37,066 bases of DNA from contig JBIIOS010000003.1 of NCBI GenBank assembly GCA_044336805.1, positions 1 through 37,066 of the forward strand. Reading direction: 5' to 3'. Each line of letters opens with the position of its first letter. The stretch's first letter is position 1. The notes under the pieces were generated by a model. The model had not been told where the DNA came from. It saw only the letters and a list, made by a program, of their open reading frames with translations, and searched no databases. The position numbers were made by a program, and so were the translations under genes. This document shows, piece by piece, positions 15,459 through 27,362 of the stretch. The DNA comes from Candidatus Nanopelagicales bacterium (GTDB lineage Bacteria; Actinomycetota; Actinomycetes; S36-B12).

Positions 15459-16232
15459 ATGATCCTTCCCCTTGCCAGTGGTGTTATTGCACCGGTGGCA
15501 CCTGGTGACCGTCCAGCTTTCTGGGCGGTCACTGGTCGTTTAGGCGGCCATAGTGTTGGTGAATTCTCGCAGGCAAATATTGCCCAGCATGTCGGTGATG
15601 ACCCAGATGCCGTGGCGCGTAATCTCGAGGAGTTAGGCGGACTCGTTCAGGTCCAAGGACGCGAGCTAGCCCTGATGCAGCCAATTCATGGAAATGGCAT
15701 TGGTCGGGTTACACATCCAGGAATGGTCATCGGCGTGGACTCACTTGTCACTGAAGAGTGCGGCATGGGGCTAGTAGCCATGGGAGCGGACTGTGTCCCT
15801 TTGATTCTTTATGGATCACGAGGACATGAGAAACCGATAATTAGCGCCGTCCATTGTGGATGGAAAGGCTTGGTAGCGGGTGTCGTCACTGCCACCATTA
15901 CTGAACTTCGGCTGCGTGGAGCGAATGAAATCCAATCCATAGTTGGGCCGGCAATCTGTGGCTCGTGCTATTTGGTTTCACCGGATCGTCGGGAATTGGT
16001 CAGGACTTCCACTCCCGCAGATGTTTCGGAGGCCGCGCTGGGCATTGCGGGTGGGATAGATGTCCGCGCAGGAGTGTTATCCGAGCTGACGCGTGAGCGC
16101 GTTGGCTCGCAAGTAATTGGAGGCTGCACTTTTGAGAATCCGGAAACCCTCTTTTCGTATCGCAAAAATGATGGAAGGACTGGGCGTCAAGGAATAATCA
16201 TTGCAATGCACGAGAGTCGGGAGCGGTCATAA
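15459..16232 (+). CDS. pgeF: PgeF/YfiH/YlmD family (peptidoglycan editing factor, laccase-like fold)
   Basis: HVGDD, ADCVP, H(C)GWKG, GPAIC..CY, FSYR..GRQ; follows ftsZ; exact start uncertain. Confidence 0.88.
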   Translation: MILPLASGVIAPVAPGDRPAFWAVTGRLGGHSVGEFSQANIAQHVGDDPDAVARNLEELGGLVQVQGRELALMQPIHGNGIGRVTHPGMVIGVDSLVTEECGMGLVAMGADCVPLILYGSRGHEKPIISAVHCGWKGLVAGVVTATITELRLRGANEIQSIVGPAICGSCYLVSPDRRELVRTSTPADVSEAALGIAGGIDVRAGVLSELTRERVGSQVIGGCTFENPETLFSYRKNDGRTGRQGIIIAMHESRERS

Positions 16233-22192: not shown

Positions 22193-22762
22193 ATGTCCGA
22201 ACCTAGTGCTGTCGCGAATGGTGTTCAACGGCACAGCAATCGGCGTGACCTAACTGTTTTTGGTGTAACCGCGTTCCTCATCATTGGTATTGACCAATTG
22301 ACCAAGTTCCTGGCTCAGGAGTATTTACTCCCGCGCAGGACTTCGGGCGAAGGACCCATTGAGTTCTTGGGTGGCTTTGTGAAATTCACTTATGCTGAAA
22401 ACACAGGCGCCGCTTTCTCGATTGGTTCCGGAGTCACGTGGCTCTTCACGTTGGTCGCGTTTGTCGTAGTCTTTGTCATCTTTCGATACGCTCGCAGGCT
22501 CGCAAGTCTACCTTGGGCGCTGGCTCTTGGCGGACTACTCGGTGGCTCATTAGGTAACTTGATTGACCGAATGTTTCGGGCGCCAGGACCATTCCAAGGT
22601 TTCGTGGTTGACTTCATCCAGTTGCCATACTGGGCAATATTCAACATTGCTGACATGTCAATTGTGATTTCTGGAATAGGAATTGCGATCCTGCTGCTTC
22701 GTGGAATACCCATTGATGGAAAGCCTGTGGTCCTAAGCGCGCCCGACAGGGTGGACTCGTGA
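22193..22762 (+). CDS. lspA: Lipoprotein signal peptidase II
   Basis: DQLTK, NTGAAFS, GNLIDR, VVDFI, FNIAD. Confidence 0.96.
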   Translation: MSEPSAVANGVQRHSNRRDLTVFGVTAFLIIGIDQLTKFLAQEYLLPRRTSGEGPIEFLGGFVKFTYAENTGAAFSIGSGVTWLFTLVAFVVVFVIFRYARRLASLPWALALGGLLGGSLGNLIDRMFRAPGPFQGFVVDFIQLPYWAIFNIADMSIVISGIGIAILLLRGIPIDGKPVVLSAPDRVDS

Positions 22763-23685
22763 TCCGTGAGTTCACTATTCCCGAGGGATTAGCAGGGGAG
22801 CGAATTGATATTGCGCTCACTAGACTCCTTGGCCTCAGCCGTTCCGCTTCCGTCGCGCTCATTGAGGCAGGAGCCATCCGGTTATCTGATCGGCCGTTAG
22901 CGAAAAGTGATCGTGTCGTTGAAGGCCAACGCATTGATGTCGATTTGGATGCGGCACCCACAAAAGAGACAATTGAAATTATTGCTGAACCGGTACCAGG
23001 AATGACGATTGTCTATGACGACTCAGACCTAGTCGTTGTTGATAAGCCCGCCGGAGTTGCGGCGCACCCCAGCCGTGGCTGGCCAGGACCAACGGTCATT
23101 GGGGGATTGGCCGCCGCCGGGTACACCATCAGTACCTCCGGAGCCCCTGAGCGCGAAGGAATCGTGCATCGACTGGATGCAGGAACGTCGGGCCTTATGG
23201 CCGTTGCGAAAAATGAAGTTTCCTACTCCCGGATGAAGAACCTGTTTCGAAACAGGGAAGTACATAAGGTCTATCACGCTGTTGTTCAAGGCCTACTCGA
23301 TCCACTCGTGGGAACCGTTGATGCGGCTATTGGACGCCATCCGGGGCATGAGTACAAATACGCGGTCACAAAGGATGGGAAGCCGAGTATTACCCACTTT
23401 GAGACCCTGGAAGCTTTCCGTCACGCTTCATTGGTGCAAGTACTCCTGGAAACGGGCAGGACCCACCAAATTCGGGTCCACATGTCCGCGATGCGTCACC
23501 CAATCGCCGGTGACACCATGTACGGTGGAGATCCGGTTTTAGCGGCTCGACTAGGGCTGGATCGTCAGTGGTTACACGCGGTCGAACTCAGCTTTGACCA
23601 CCCGCGAACTGGGGAACGAGTTGAATTGAAAAGTGAATACAGCGAAGATCTCACCCGCGCACTTGGAATTTTGCGCGACGCTTGA
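22759..23685 (+). CDS. rluD: RluA-family pseudouridine synthase with S4 domain (RluD-like)
   Basis: N-terminal S4 domain, VDKPAG, VHRLDAGTSG, GRTHQIRVH, GD..YG, LHA. Confidence 0.9.
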   Translation: MIREFTIPEGLAGERIDIALTRLLGLSRSASVALIEAGAIRLSDRPLAKSDRVVEGQRIDVDLDAAPTKETIEIIAEPVPGMTIVYDDSDLVVVDKPAGVAAHPSRGWPGPTVIGGLAAAGYTISTSGAPEREGIVHRLDAGTSGLMAVAKNEVSYSRMKNLFRNREVHKVYHAVVQGLLDPLVGTVDAAIGRHPGHEYKYAVTKDGKPSITHFETLEAFRHASLVQVLLETGRTHQIRVHMSAMRHPIAGDTMYGGDPVLAARLGLDRQWLHAVELSFDHPRTGERVELKSEYSEDLTRALGILRDA

Positions 23686-23771
23686 TTACTGAGTTTGGCA
23701 CCTTCCCCTTGTGCCAGTTGATGTGTGGAGTGGCTCCAGTGAAGTGATTGACGCAAAGATTTGTTCAGTAA
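23686..23771 (+). ncRNA. Putative structured dnaE leader resembling the mraW motif
   Basis: Hairpin TGGCAC(23696-23701)/GTGCCA(23711-23716) with loop CTTCCCCTT; second hairpin TGGAG/CTCCA (23726-23738); outer stem TTACTGA(23686-23692)/TCAGTAA(23765-23771). Confidence 0.45.
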
Positions 23772-23778
23772 ACGTGTT

Positions 23779-23814
23779 GTGATTTTGATAAGGGTGATTT
23801 TGATAAGGGTGATT
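23779..23814 (+). repeat. 15-bp tandem repeat (2.4 copies) duplicating the dnaE RBS
   Basis: GTGATTTTGATAAGG x2 + GTGATT, ending 2 nt before GTG 23817. Confidence 0.95.
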
Positions 23815-23816
23815 GC

Positions 23817-26800
23817 GTGAGTGAGTCCGTGGGCAAGGGCGATTTCGTTCACCTTCATGTGCACACCGAGTACTCGATGCTGGATGGTGCCTCGAAGCTT
23901 GATGACCTTTTTCTAGCGGCAAAAGAGCAAGGCATGCCGGCAATCGCTATGACAGATCACGGCAACCTTTATGGCGCCTACGATTTCTGGAAGATGGGTA
24001 AAGCGTACGGGGTAAAGCCGGTCATCGGACTTGAAGGCTATTACGCACCTCAGGGCCGATTTGAGCGCACTCCATTTGATTTTGGTGGTGGCTTCGATGA
24101 AGGAGCCCCGGAAGATCCCGGGGCGGGTCGAGGCAAACACAGTTACACGCACATGACCCTCTGGGCCGAAAACACCGTTGGCATGCACAATCTTTTTCGA
24201 CTCTCATCCCTGGCCAGCATTGAAGGCTATTACCACAAGCCACGATTTGACCGTGAGCTTTTAGACCGTTACGGCAAGGGTCTCATTGGTACGACAGGGT
24301 GTGCGAGTGGTGAAGTGAATCGTTGGCTCCAAGCGGGACAGTACAAAAAAGCTTTAGCCACTGCAGCCGATTACCGGGATATTTTTGGTGTGGGAAACTT
24401 CTTTGCCGAGATTATGGACCACGGTCTTGCTATTGAACGAAATTTTATGCCTGATTTGATCAAGATTTCGAAAGCCCTCGATTTGCCACTAATTGCAACC
24501 AATGACATGCACTACGTTCATGAAAGTGACGCTGACACACACGATGTCTTATTGTGCATTGGAACTCGAACCACACTTGATGACCCGAAAAGATTCAAAT
24601 TTGATGCCCGTGATTTTTACTTGAAGTCTGCAGCCCAAATGCGAGATTTATGGAGTGACTTCCCCGAGGCTTGTGACAACACTTTGCTGATCGCGGAGCG
24701 GTGCGACGTTGAGTTCAGCGAAGGTGCAAATCTCATGCCCCGCGCTGACATCCCTCCTGGAGAAAGTGAAGATTCCTGGCTGGTTAAGGAAGTGGAGATT
24801 GGTTTGGCGCGCAGGTACCCGGCCGGCGTCCCTGACAGAGTGCGAACGCAGGCTGAGTACGAATTGAGAGTCATCTCCCAGATGGGTTTCCCGGGTTATT
24901 TCCTAGTCGTGGCTGATCTGGTGCAACATGCCAAAAATAATGGAATTCGAGTCGGACCTGGTCGTGGATCTGCCGCCGGTGCCATGGTTGCGTACGCATT
25001 GGGAATTACTGACCTGGATCCCATAGAGCACGGTTTACTGTTTGAGAGATTCTTGAATCCAGAGCGAATCTCGATGCCCGATATCGACATCGACTTTGAT
25101 GAGCGGCGACGTTCGGACATGATTCGTTACGCCACGGAGAAGTATGGGGAAGAGCGCGTCGCCCAGATTGTCACCTACGGTTCAATCAAAGCAAAAGCCG
25201 CAATCAAGGACAGTGCGCGTGTCCTGGGCTTGCCCTACTCTGTGGGTGACCGAATCACGAAAGCTATGCCACCGTCCGTAATGGGCAAGGACATTACTCT
25301 TAAAGGCGCATTTGATCCGAGTGATTCTCGGTATTCGGAAGCTGCAGAGTTTCGGGCACTTTACGCAAGTGATCCCGAGGTACAGACTGTCATTGACACG
25401 GCTAAGGGCCTTGAAGGACTGAAGCGCCAACCGGGTGTACACGCCGCAGGAGTGATTCTGTGTAGTGAGCCGCTCATGGACGTGATTCCGGTCTGGAAAC
25501 GTGAACAAGATGGCGCAATCATCACTCAGTTCGACATGGGTGCGTGTGAGTCCCTTGGTTTGCTAAAAATGGACTTCTTGGGATTGCGTAACCTCAGCGT
25601 CCTTGATGACTGCTTGGAAAATATCAAGCGCAACACGGGTGATGAAGTTGTTTTGGAAACCTTGGCGCTCGACGACAAGATGGCCTACGAGCTTCTCTCG
25701 CGGGGTGACACGCTAGGGGTTTTCCAACTCGATGGTGGCCCGATGCGTTCGTTATTGCGTTCCATGGCTCCGGACAACTTCGAAGATATTTCAGCGGTGC
25801 TTGCGCTCTACAGGCCTGGACCCATGGGCGCAAATGCGCACAATGACTATGCAGATAGAAAAAATGGACGCAAGCCGGTCGTCCCGATTCACCCTGAACT
25901 TGAAGGGCCACTCAGTGAGATTCTCGGCGATACCTACGGACTGATCGTCTATCAAGAGCAGGTCATGGCGATTGCCCAACAGCTGGCTGGGTATTCACTT
26001 GGCAAAGCAGATCTACTTCGCCGAGCAATGAGTAAAAAGAAAAAGGAAATCCTTGAACAAGAATTTGTCCCATTTAGTGAGGGCATGAGTGAACGCGGAT
26101 TCTCTGATCCTGCGATAAACAAGTTATGGGAAGTCCTGGTTCCCTTCTCGGATTACGCATTCAATAAGGCTCATACGGCCGGATACGGACTCGTTTCTTA
26201 TTGGACCGCGTATTTGAAGGCCAATTACCCGGCCGAGTACATGGCGGCACTGCTCACTTCAATGGCCGACGACAAGGAACGTTCAGCAATATATCTCAAC
26301 GAATGTCGTCGCATGGGAATCAAAGTTTTGCCACCTGATGTCAATGATTCAGATGCAAATTACACCCCTCGTGGAACTGATATTCGTTTTGGATTGACGG
26401 CCATTCGCAACGTGGGAACTAACGTTGTGGATTCGGTAATCGCCACTCGAAACAAAGTTGGTCGCTTTTCAGATTTTCACGACTTCATCGCCAAAGTAGA
26501 TATCGCTGTCTGCAATAGGCGAGTTGTCGAGTCATTGGTCAAAGCAGGTGCTTTCGACAGTTTGGGCCACACGCGCAAGGGGTTAATCGCAGTGCACGAG
26601 CAGATAATTGATGCTGCCGTTGACATCAAGCGGTCTGAGGCGGTTGGGCAGTTTGACTTATTTGGCGGGCTCGAAGAAGATTCTGATGTTTCACTGATCG
26701 AACGACCCGTCATCGGAATCACCGAGTGGGAAAAGTCGCTTCTTCTTGCACACGAGCGCGACATGCTGGGCCTGTACGTCTCAGACCATCCACTTTTCGG

Positions 26801-27362
26801 CATGGAGAGCGCGTTGGCACAACTATCGGATCGAAGCATTGCATCCGTTTTGATTGATGAACACCTCGACGGCCAGGTAATTTCACTGGGTGGTTTGGTT
26901 ACCAGCGTCGTCCGAAAAACTACTAAGAAGGGCTCAGCTTGGGCAATTGTCACTTTGGAGGACTTGGAGGGAAGCCTCGAAGTCATGGTTTTCCCAGCTT
27001 CATATGCATCCTTTGGAACCCTCTTGGTAGATGACTCGATTTTGGTTATTCGCACTAAAATTGATCGAAGTGATGATGAGGGAGTCCGTGCCATTGCACT
27101 TGAAGTAACCGCTCCGGATCTCTCGGGTGCCCCAACAGGTCCGGTTCGATTAACTATGTCAGCTACCCGTTGTGTTCCGCCACTTGTCGCTCGCCTAAAA
27201 AACATTCTGGCGCAGCACCCGGGAACCACAGAAGTGCAATTGCACTTAACCGGTGGTACCTCAACAACGGTCATGAAGCTTGACGATGTCTACCGAGTGA
27301 CGCCTTCCCCCTCGCTTTTTGGCGACCTCAAGGCACTATTGGGCTCGTCATGTCTGATTTAG
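23817..27362 (+). CDS. dnaE: DNA polymerase III alpha subunit DnaE1
   Basis: PHP domain (HLHVH, TDHG, TGC, NDMH), GRGSAAG, MPDIDIDF, KMDFLGL, FNKAH, clamp motif QFDLF, OB fold; no intein-sized insertion. Confidence 0.98.
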   Translation: MSESVGKGDFVHLHVHTEYSMLDGASKLDDLFLAAKEQGMPAIAMTDHGNLYGAYDFWKMGKAYGVKPVIGLEGYYAPQGRFERTPFDFGGGFDEGAPEDPGAGRGKHSYTHMTLWAENTVGMHNLFRLSSLASIEGYYHKPRFDRELLDRYGKGLIGTTGCASGEVNRWLQAGQYKKALATAADYRDIFGVGNFFAEIMDHGLAIERNFMPDLIKISKALDLPLIATNDMHYVHESDADTHDVLLCIGTRTTLDDPKRFKFDARDFYLKSAAQMRDLWSDFPEACDNTLLIAERCDVEFSEGANLMPRADIPPGESEDSWLVKEVEIGLARRYPAGVPDRVRTQAEYELRVISQMGFPGYFLVVADLVQHAKNNGIRVGPGRGSAAGAMVAYALGITDLDPIEHGLLFERFLNPERISMPDIDIDFDERRRSDMIRYATEKYGEERVAQIVTYGSIKAKAAIKDSARVLGLPYSVGDRITKAMPPSVMGKDITLKGAFDPSDSRYSEAAEFRALYASDPEVQTVIDTAKGLEGLKRQPGVHAAGVILCSEPLMDVIPVWKREQDGAIITQFDMGACESLGLLKMDFLGLRNLSVLDDCLENIKRNTGDEVVLETLALDDKMAYELLSRGDTLGVFQLDGGPMRSLLRSMAPDNFEDISAVLALYRPGPMGANAHNDYADRKNGRKPVVPIHPELEGPLSEILGDTYGLIVYQEQVMAIAQQLAGYSLGKADLLRRAMSKKKKEILEQEFVPFSEGMSERGFSDPAINKLWEVLVPFSDYAFNKAHTAGYGLVSYWTAYLKANYPAEYMAALLTSMADDKERSAIYLNECRRMGIKVLPPDVNDSDANYTPRGTDIRFGLTAIRNVGTNVVDSVIATRNKVGRFSDFHDFIAKVDIAVCNRRVVESLVKAGAFDSLGHTRKGLIAVHEQIIDAAVDIKRSEAVGQFDLFGGLEEDSDVSLIERPVIGITEWEKSLLLAHERDMLGLYVSDHPLFGMESALAQLSDRSIASVLIDEHLDGQVISLGGLVTSVVRKTTKKGSAWAIVTLEDLEGSLEVMVFPASYASFGTLLVDDSILVIRTKIDRSDDEGVRAIALEVTAPDLSGAPTGPVRLTMSATRCVPPLVARLKNILAQHPGTTEVQLHLTGGTSTTVMKLDDVYRVTPSPSLFGDLKALLGSSCLI

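Follow-up and report, generated by a model that had tools for sequence, protein, structure and literature searches.

A conserved CUUCCCC-loop hairpin in the dnaE leader of a Nanopelagicales actinobacterium and a possible post-transcriptional regulon sharing its loop

The DNA analysed here (the window) is a stretch of 37,066 nt from Candidatus Nanopelagicales bacterium (assembly GCA_044336805.1, contig JBIIOS010000003.1); it is contig C104 of the source genome, G000, a 1.99-Mb draft of 219 contigs with 53% G+C and 92% completeness. Besides an actinobacterial division and cell wall (dcw) cluster, it carries on the forward strand, where the dnaE-leader, mraW-type and ftsZ/pgeF features described below also lie, a gene for an RluD-type pseudouridine synthase (22759-23685; Pfam PF00849, E = 3.4e-29), hereafter rluD, and dnaE, the DNA polymerase III alpha subunit gene (23817-27362; Pfam PHP, DNA_pol3_alpha, finger, HHH_6 and OB domains). 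The subject of this work is the leader that serves dnaE, a spacer of 131 nt between the end of rluD at 23685 and the GTG start of dnaE at 23817. Ten nucleotides after the rluD stop begins a hairpin, P1 (23696-23716), with arms TGGCAC (23696-23701) and GTGCCA (23711-23716), a further U.G pair at 23695/23717, and a 9-nt loop, CTTCCCCTT (23702-23710; also written CUUCCCCUU), that is closed directly by the stem. The first seven loop residues, CUUCCCC (23702-23708), form an invariant heptamer, the core that is common to the loops of mraW-type RNA elements and of penicillin-binding protein (PBP) and whiB1-like gene leaders, and to sites at GH18, LysM and ftsZ/pgeF genes. The dnaE ribosome site AAGGGUGAU (23805-23813), followed by the GTG start (23817-23819), is complementary to the loop bases UCCCCUU with one bulge.

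In a single sequence P1 exceeds chance only marginally: folded alone it reaches -8.2 kcal/mol (z = -2.0), as 6 of 200 shuffles also do, the whole dnaE spacer folds no better than its shuffles (z = +0.66), and 25 of the 246 CTTCCCC copies in the G000 genome lie in hairpins of at least 5 bp. The decisive evidence is comparative. The DnaE N-terminus was searched in 40 relatives and the rluD-dnaE spacers were excised, which gave 19 spacers from congeners; G001 (no dnaE match) and G017 (a fragment only) were left out. P1 is present in G000 and in 14 of the 19 congeners, and its 9-nt loop is invariant in all 15 genomes. The arms compensate one another, reading GGCAC/GUGCC, UGCAC/GUGCA, CACAC/GUGUG, UGCUC/GGGCA, UGUAC/GUACA or UGCAU/AUGCA. 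In an ungapped alignment of 31 columns (A2; 15 genomes, 13 distinct rows), each of the eight stem pairs changes on both sides (14 cells) with 83.7% of cells paired; none of 500 shuffles matches any of five measures, slid controls are at most 64% paired, and a longer alignment (A1) reproduces the result. On this comparison the hairpin is beyond chance. A first-pass annotation, made from the window's letters alone, had described the rluD-dnaE gap as holding a second mraW-like element and had named an alignment of dnaE leaders as a check; an invariant loop on a covarying stem is what that alignment returned. When the genus hairpin was turned into a covariance model (R1) and searched over 88 sources, the window's own hairpin was recovered at 41.7 bits and the other matches were mostly to a palindromic stretch of conserved dnaE codons (GTGCAC..GTGCAC); for collecting hairpins more widely the model was rejected as too genus-specific.

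Besides P1, the same annotation had given the gap a second hairpin and a closing stem, together with two AAGGG motifs complementary to the loop. Its coordinates for the hairpin arms, for both AAGGG copies (23790-23794 and 23805-23809) and for the closing-stem complement all agree with the sequence; TTACTGA (23686-23692) is indeed the exact complement of TCAGTAA (23765-23771), giving 7 bp. The closing stem with its inner hairpin (23686-23771), present in G000, is unconserved and is excluded from the element defined here: 63.6% of its cells are paired across the 15 genomes, four of the five measures are reached by 97-371 of 500 shuffles, and its covariation score is reached by 26 of 500. Behind the pair of AAGGG copies is a 15-nt stretch repeated exactly in tandem (GTGATTTTGATAAGG twice, 23779-23808), which yields the upstream copy and is exclusive to G000 among the aligned leaders. 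The ribosome-site sequence GATAAGGGTGAT is kept in 14 of these 15, and G010, which deviates there, has AAGGGTGA about 17 nt upstream. Between P1 and the ribosome site the aligned leaders are variable and short duplications are frequent; apart from the 15 nt repeated in G000, 19 nt are repeated in G006, G018 has a partial copy of the Shine-Dalgarno (SD) sequence, and G003 and G021 have longer inserts. Such varied duplications and inserts suggest that the region 3' of the hairpin turns over quickly. As a separate observation, GGCACCTTCC (23697-23706), comprising 5' arm and loop start, is 90% complementary to GGATGGTGCC (23882-23891) in dnaE codons 22-25.

The association of CUUCCCC with dnaE, as judged from a wide survey of upstream regions, predates the genus and reaches beyond it. 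From named genomes, the 80 best DnaE relatives were taken as an unbiased collection, which gave 78 loci with full flanks. Of these 78, 28 carry CTTCCCC in the 200 nt before dnaE, always on the sense strand and at -38 to -138, and it is the most frequent 7-mer in that region; the runner-up is found in 16 loci, and non-overlapping permutations of its C5T2 composition are found in at most 5 loci each. The antisense strand carries it in 2 of 78 loci, the first 200 coding bases in none, and the region upstream of whiB1 in 3 of 78 comparable genomes. Carriers belong to the Geodermatophilaceae, Nocardioidaceae, Streptosporangiaceae, Acidothermaceae and Motilibacteraceae and to several lineages known from metagenome-assembled genomes (MAGs). 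Their stems vary by lineage, with for instance ACCGG/CCGGT in the Geodermatophilaceae and GCCG/CGGC elsewhere, and 19 of the 28 sites have a flanking stem of at least 4 bp (3'-flank shuffles: mean 8.2, maximum 14). Three further families, which belong to the same taxonomic order, have a -10-like TAGGGT or TAGGCT before dnaE and, about 20 nt after it, a hairpin of the type GCCG-ACUUCCCC-CGGC. A pattern scan of all genomes gave at least 119 stretches; it is biased by design, chance could give tens of matches, and it was used for genus names only, the carrier genera among the matches listed including the cultivable and harmless Nocardioides, Geodermatophilus, Blastococcus and Klenkia. Also among the matches listed are Opitutia/Verrucomicrobiota MAGs (one labelled Akkermansia) with CCCUUCCCC about 50 nt before the dnaE start, which in a collection of this size could be chance.

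The window holds a second display of the heptamer in the mraZ-rsmH spacer (400-523), an element with a long outer helix, a hairpin at 432-457 and a second hairpin, which we read as a divergent mraW motif. Its minimum free energy (MFE) is -64.3 kcal/mol (z = -6.3), the loop of the 432-457 hairpin is CACUUCCCCG with its core at 442-448, and the mraW model RF01746 matches this hairpin locally with 23.2 bits (E = 0.014), below the 50-bit cut-off; Rfam 15 gave no gathering-level match anywhere in the window. The hairpin with this loop is kept, with a covarying stem, in all 13 mraZ-rsmH spacers recovered from the genus. The mraW motif was listed as a likely cis-regulator of the Actinomycetales, and the seed alignment in supplement file 4 of that survey has an invariant CUUCCCC loop (Weinberg et al. 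2010, PMC2864571); another source gives its function as still unknown (PMC5640933). Of the likeness drawn by the first-pass annotation between the two elements of the window, the loop stands, CUUCCCC being identical in both, and the shared layout falls with the unconserved closing stem and second hairpin; its proposed search with the Rfam mraW model found no RF01746 match to the dnaE spacer at E up to 10 in 23600-23900.

On the stretch from the mraW-type element to rsmH there is a 33-nt block, GAACCCGACCGCGAATCGTGTTCCACGAGGGAA (549-581), which all 13 genus spacers keep invariant. After it comes a conserved open reading frame (ORF) of 47 codons (591-734) with a hydrophobic C-terminal half and without a Pfam match, the ribosome site of which, GGGAA(A/G)G, is complementary to the mraW loop. 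An intergenic sequence elsewhere in the genome (G000:C164:880-940), GGUGGGGAAGCCCGACCGCGCAUG, contains the exact complement of the heptamer adjoining the 10-mer CCCGACCGCG, which also occurs inside the invariant mraZ-rsmH block; this may be chance.

Other leaders of the genus carry the heptamer as well. With crude gene calls of our own, 33 CTTCCCC copies in G000 are intergenic or no more than 60 nt inside a called start, and ten of them were followed into relatives. One conserved site precedes a class A PBP gene that lies 3' of a DUF5318 gene (Pfam); this leader has the heptamer in 20 of 20 genus loci. Seventeen of these hairpins read GUCC (GUCU in one)-CCUUCCCCGAU(A/U)-GGAC, their 3' arm containing the ribosome site, and the remaining three read ACUCA-CCUUCCCC-GAGU. 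Distant Nanopelagicales lineages have CAGGU-UCCCUUCCCCG-ACCUG at the same position, followed by GAGGA and ATG; the gene 3' of this hairpin is unconfirmed as a PBP gene, as the loci end inside an Arg/Ser-rich N-terminus. Overall, CTTCCC lies downstream of DUF5318 in 23 of 29 loci, and three of the six misses have at most 126 nt of sequence. The leader of a WhiB1-like gene contains CUGGCC-[loop]-GGCCAG in 6/6 genomes, with CUUCCC fixed and the loop flanks variable; one of the six reads CUUCCCA, and the site is genus-specific. These genes, together with the 28 dnaE loci against 3 controls, lend support to the earlier suggestion of a shared set of CUUCCCC leaders and add wall and cell-cycle genes to it. 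Two further leaders keep the heptamer in 6/6, that of a GH18 gene, without a clear presenting hairpin, and that of a LysM gene, where the spacer between SD and AUG, GAAAGGCUUCCCCAUG, holds it. Upstream of the LysM gene (G000:C71) lies a conserved palindrome-like block, AAACACATGTTCGAAATGTG, which presumably resembles an actinobacterial LexA box. Within the window, the heptamer also occurs at the junction of the ftsZ stop and the start of a pgeF-like gene (ATGATCCTTCCCCTTGCCAG, 15459-15480; Pfam Cu-oxidase_4). Here CUUCCCCUUGCC is invariant in 6/6 without synonymous change, though it lies in the first codons, and neighbouring codons vary; no presenting hairpin was found at this junction. The first pgeF-like codons read CCUUCCCCUUG, which equals the dnaE loop plus its closing bases.

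We propose that these leaders form one post-transcriptional regulon with a single trans-acting reader of exposed CUUCCCC, a reading to which we give a probability of about 0.5. The dnaE message would carry a cis-acting hairpin of which the heptamer loop is the sole fixed part, and the job of the hairpin would be to display CUUCCCC single-stranded; the same heptamer would be displayed in the rsmH/dcw mraW-type, class A PBP and whiB1-like leaders, and the reader would jointly control how genes of replication, wall and division are translated or how stable their messages are. In many other Actinobacteria the heptamer likewise appears to lie close to the 5' end of the dnaE leader. The leaders of dnaE, mraZ-rsmH (13/13), PBP (20/20, with three stems) and the whiB1-like gene (6/6) are best read as members of such a CUUCCCC-display class. 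In the dnaE leader of the genus, occupancy of the loop would pick one of two states, the first with P1 formed and the ribosome site free, the alternative with the pyrimidine tract paired with the ribosome site AAGGGUGA. The ribosome sites of the heptamer genes differ (AAGGGUGA, GAGGGAAAG, AGGACA and GGAGUGA), and the presence of the same heptamer despite this favours a common partner outside the leaders. The PBP leaders have their ribosome site inside or adjacent to the stem, which prevents the loop from being its own anti-SD there. Taken together, the identity of the heptamer, the PBP arrangement and the fixation of only the heptamer in the whiB1-like leader favour a shared reader. The hairpin, its conservation and covariation, and the heptamer shared by this gene set are observed directly, and it is from them that we infer the reader, its nature and the direction of its control.

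A protein is a more likely reader than an RNA. KH domains have a preference for C-rich single strands, in Firmicutes KhpA/B influence division, and G000 encodes KH_KhpA-B family proteins (64.2 and 33.4 bits), making a KhpA/KhpB-type KH protein one candidate. RsmH is another, and its 16S target CACCGCCCG may loosely resemble the mraW loop CACUUCCCCG. As for a G-rich partner RNA, 26 intergenic GGGGAAG sites in G000 were inspected by eye; none stood out as a small RNA gene, and two are plain ribosome sites. We consider it unlikely that Actinobacteria have a dedicated regulon in which one RNA-binding protein reads the heptamer at the rsmH/dcw, dnaE, class A PBP, whiB1 and wall hydrolase leaders alike and thereby ties replication, wall synthesis and division to one signal.

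The alternative that survives best works purely in cis and dispenses with a dedicated reader: the tract and part of the P1 5' arm would pair with the dnaE ribosome site and start and lower translation, P1 would be the competing fold that permits translation, the balance would shift with temperature or with the load of ribosomes or helicase, and the recurring CUUCCCC would merely reflect the CU-richness that any anti-SD needs. The complementarity between loop and dnaE SD had been pointed out by the first-pass annotation, and the pairing is possible: UCCCCUU can face AAGGG(U)GA in 7 pairs with one bulge, and 99% of cells are paired in the 15 genomes. The tract is paired with the ribosome site in the MFE structures of G016, G015, G009 and G010 (in G008 in the centroid only), of all these loops that of dnaE alone keeps two U's invariant after the core, which pair with the AA of the dnaE ribosome site, and a complement of at least 5 nt to GGGGAAGG occurs near the start in 12/28 carriers versus 10/50 non-carriers of the wide survey. 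The duplex energy of -7.4 kcal/mol is unexceptional: 11.6% of shuffled loops do as well, and so do 9.6% of 9-mers drawn at random from the window. Of the seven pairs, four are constant in all genomes and in none have both sides changed; both partners being invariant, covariation is silent on the pairing. A canonical anti-SD core would moreover be CCUCC, and in 13 of the 28 carriers the complements near the start are no longer than 3 nt. Selection for pairing alone would leave unexplained an identical heptamer across differing ribosome sites, as well as the PBP leaders with their ribosome site in or beside the stem. We regard a purely cis-acting switch as a tentative possibility, well short of an even chance; under the regulon reading, loop-SD pairing is possible as a local switch or read-out in dnaE.

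It is decidedly improbable that CTTCCCC acts instead at the DNA level, as an initial-transcribed or promoter-proximal element or as an operator. What speaks for it comes from start-proximal sites: in high-GC relatives the heptamer lies 5-26 nt 3' of a -10-like TAnnnT, the Nocardioidaceae arrangement TAGGCT-gacgtc-CTTCCCC, with 6-7 nt in between, leaves no room for a transcribed 5' arm, and in the GH18 leader the heptamer stands 8 nt after CACAAT. These -10 boxes are themselves readings of bare sequence. An operator would not account for dnaE-leader stems that covary through compensatory changes, and the PBP stems are wholly different between lineages, as expected of an RNA and not of a protein operator; in the genus, the element follows the rluD stop by 10 nt with no sigma-70-type promoter found, and the antisense heptamer is as rare as 2/78 loci.

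It appears very unlikely that the spacer gives rise to a small RNA acting in trans like 6C, with the hairpin released from the 3' end of rluD or the 5' leader of dnaE and directed at G-rich sites of other messages. A short stem with a C-rich loop immediately behind the rluD stop would suit this, and the niche may be open, 6C not having been found in the 92% complete G000 genome; yet no terminator-like site follows, the element is a single hairpin without an Rfam 6C match, and other lineages keep it with dnaE where rluD is not adjacent. Two metatranscriptome runs (7-8% of sampled words) gave three short contigs in rluD/dnaE coding sequence and none across the spacer, and are uninformative on transcription of the element. 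Least credible, and already disfavoured, is an rluD terminator or 3'-end protector, or else a chance hairpin, for which one can cite the 10-nt distance from the rluD stop, a z of -2.0 for P1 alone and a spacer unstructured overall, as against no U run (the hairpin is followed by GUUGAUGUG), no terminator-like site in 23400-24000, an invariant 9-nt loop on a covarying stem that a terminator would not lead one to expect, a heptamer that tracks dnaE and not rluD in other families, and the count of 28/78 versus 3/78, which excludes chance.

Several points weigh against a regulon with a common reader. For dnaE taken by itself, loop-SD pairing is the simpler alternative; RNAalifold selects it, as do 4 of 5 single-sequence folds of relatives. 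The enrichment of CTTCCCC in G000 is modest, with about 26 strictly intergenic copies (33 including the first 60 nt) versus about 16 expected, and when sites were followed into five congeners, those in the peroxiredoxin (C174), thiolase (C6) and MerR-type gene (C19) leaders were not conserved, that in an excisionase-like gene region (C49) was unconserved beyond close relatives, the C76 site had no matching region in 5/5, and the C51 site had only partial matches in 2/5. Five of the 19 congeners (DnaE about 82-85% identical) have short spacers and three sister genera have short or absent rluD-dnaE spacers, in all of which the heptamer is missing; the element is therefore dispensable. Genomes of one lineage are, in addition, not independent. 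In the wide survey, 9 of the 28 sites have a stem shorter than 4 bp. In the Nocardioidaceae, the heptamer follows the -10-like TAGGCT by 6-7 nt, and it may there stand at the 5' terminus of the message and not in a loop. Several of the 50 negative loci have a -10-like TAGGGT about 6 nt before the start codon, and their dnaE looks leaderless. The same TAGGGT, about 6 nt before the dnaE GTG or ATG, was noted in the sister genera and several other Nanopelagicales MAGs, lineages in which dnaE looks leaderless.

With these points counted, what the first-pass annotation had seen is partly confirmed and its interpretation partly supported; the idea of a regulon has been strengthened and extended, with a mechanism that would run as proposed above. 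The mraW motif has been known as a structured RNA since 2010, and its invariant loop is not unique to rsmH: in many actinobacterial families the gene of the replicative polymerase is preceded by it too, as are, within the genus, the class A PBP gene, the gene for the WhiB1-like regulator and genes related to the wall. If the regulon exists, the mraW motif gains its missing function, and the position of an rRNA methyltransferase gene at the head of the division cluster becomes easier to explain. The orphan motif would thus turn into a testable regulon, with one 7-nt bait for its reader and one type of mutation serving several leaders.

Among known systems, no Rfam 15 family matched the dnaE element, and at E up to 1 nothing relevant was returned at the dnaE, PBP, whiB1, GH18 and LysM loci or at four dnaE loci of other families; in the literature covered, which excludes subscription journals, nothing was found on a dnaE leader element or on the function of the loop. 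Closest is the mraW motif (RF01746), which shares with P1 a hairpin whose terminal loop contains invariant CUUCCCC (model consensus A.CUUCCCCg), an actinobacterial distribution, a sense-strand position in a leader and an unknown function. The loops are CUUCCCCUU in the dnaE element and (C)ACUUCCCCG in the mraW hairpin. Unlike the mraW motif, the dnaE element lacks both a conserved outer helix and a conserved second hairpin, is flanked by an RluD-type gene and dnaE instead of preceding rsmH, and stays without a match to a model whose gathering cut-off is 50 bits, even at E up to 10. The 6C RNA (RF01066) is likewise an actinobacterial RNA with C-rich hairpin loops, which probably pair with G-rich sequences, ribosome sites among them; it is, however, a free-standing small RNA with two such loops, whereas the dnaE element is one hairpin inside a leader, and RF01066 has no match in the dnaE spacer or in the whole G000 genome. 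SD-sequestering leaders and RNA thermometers resemble the dnaE leader in having a CU-rich tract complementary to their own ribosome site and an alternative fold, but they covary with that site and differ between genes, while CUUCCCC stays the same from gene to gene and from family to family, and the loop-SD pairing in dnaE has an unexceptional energy. The nearest parallel in logic is offered by the CsrA/RsmA regulons, in which a short loop motif, GGA, borne by the otherwise variable hairpins of many leaders, is recognised by a single protein. The CUUCCCC leaders likewise combine a tiny invariant loop sequence with unrelated stems in several leaders, often at or near the ribosome site; the motif is CUUCCCC and not GGA, and the resemblance, no search for the CsrA family having been made, is one of logic, not of family.

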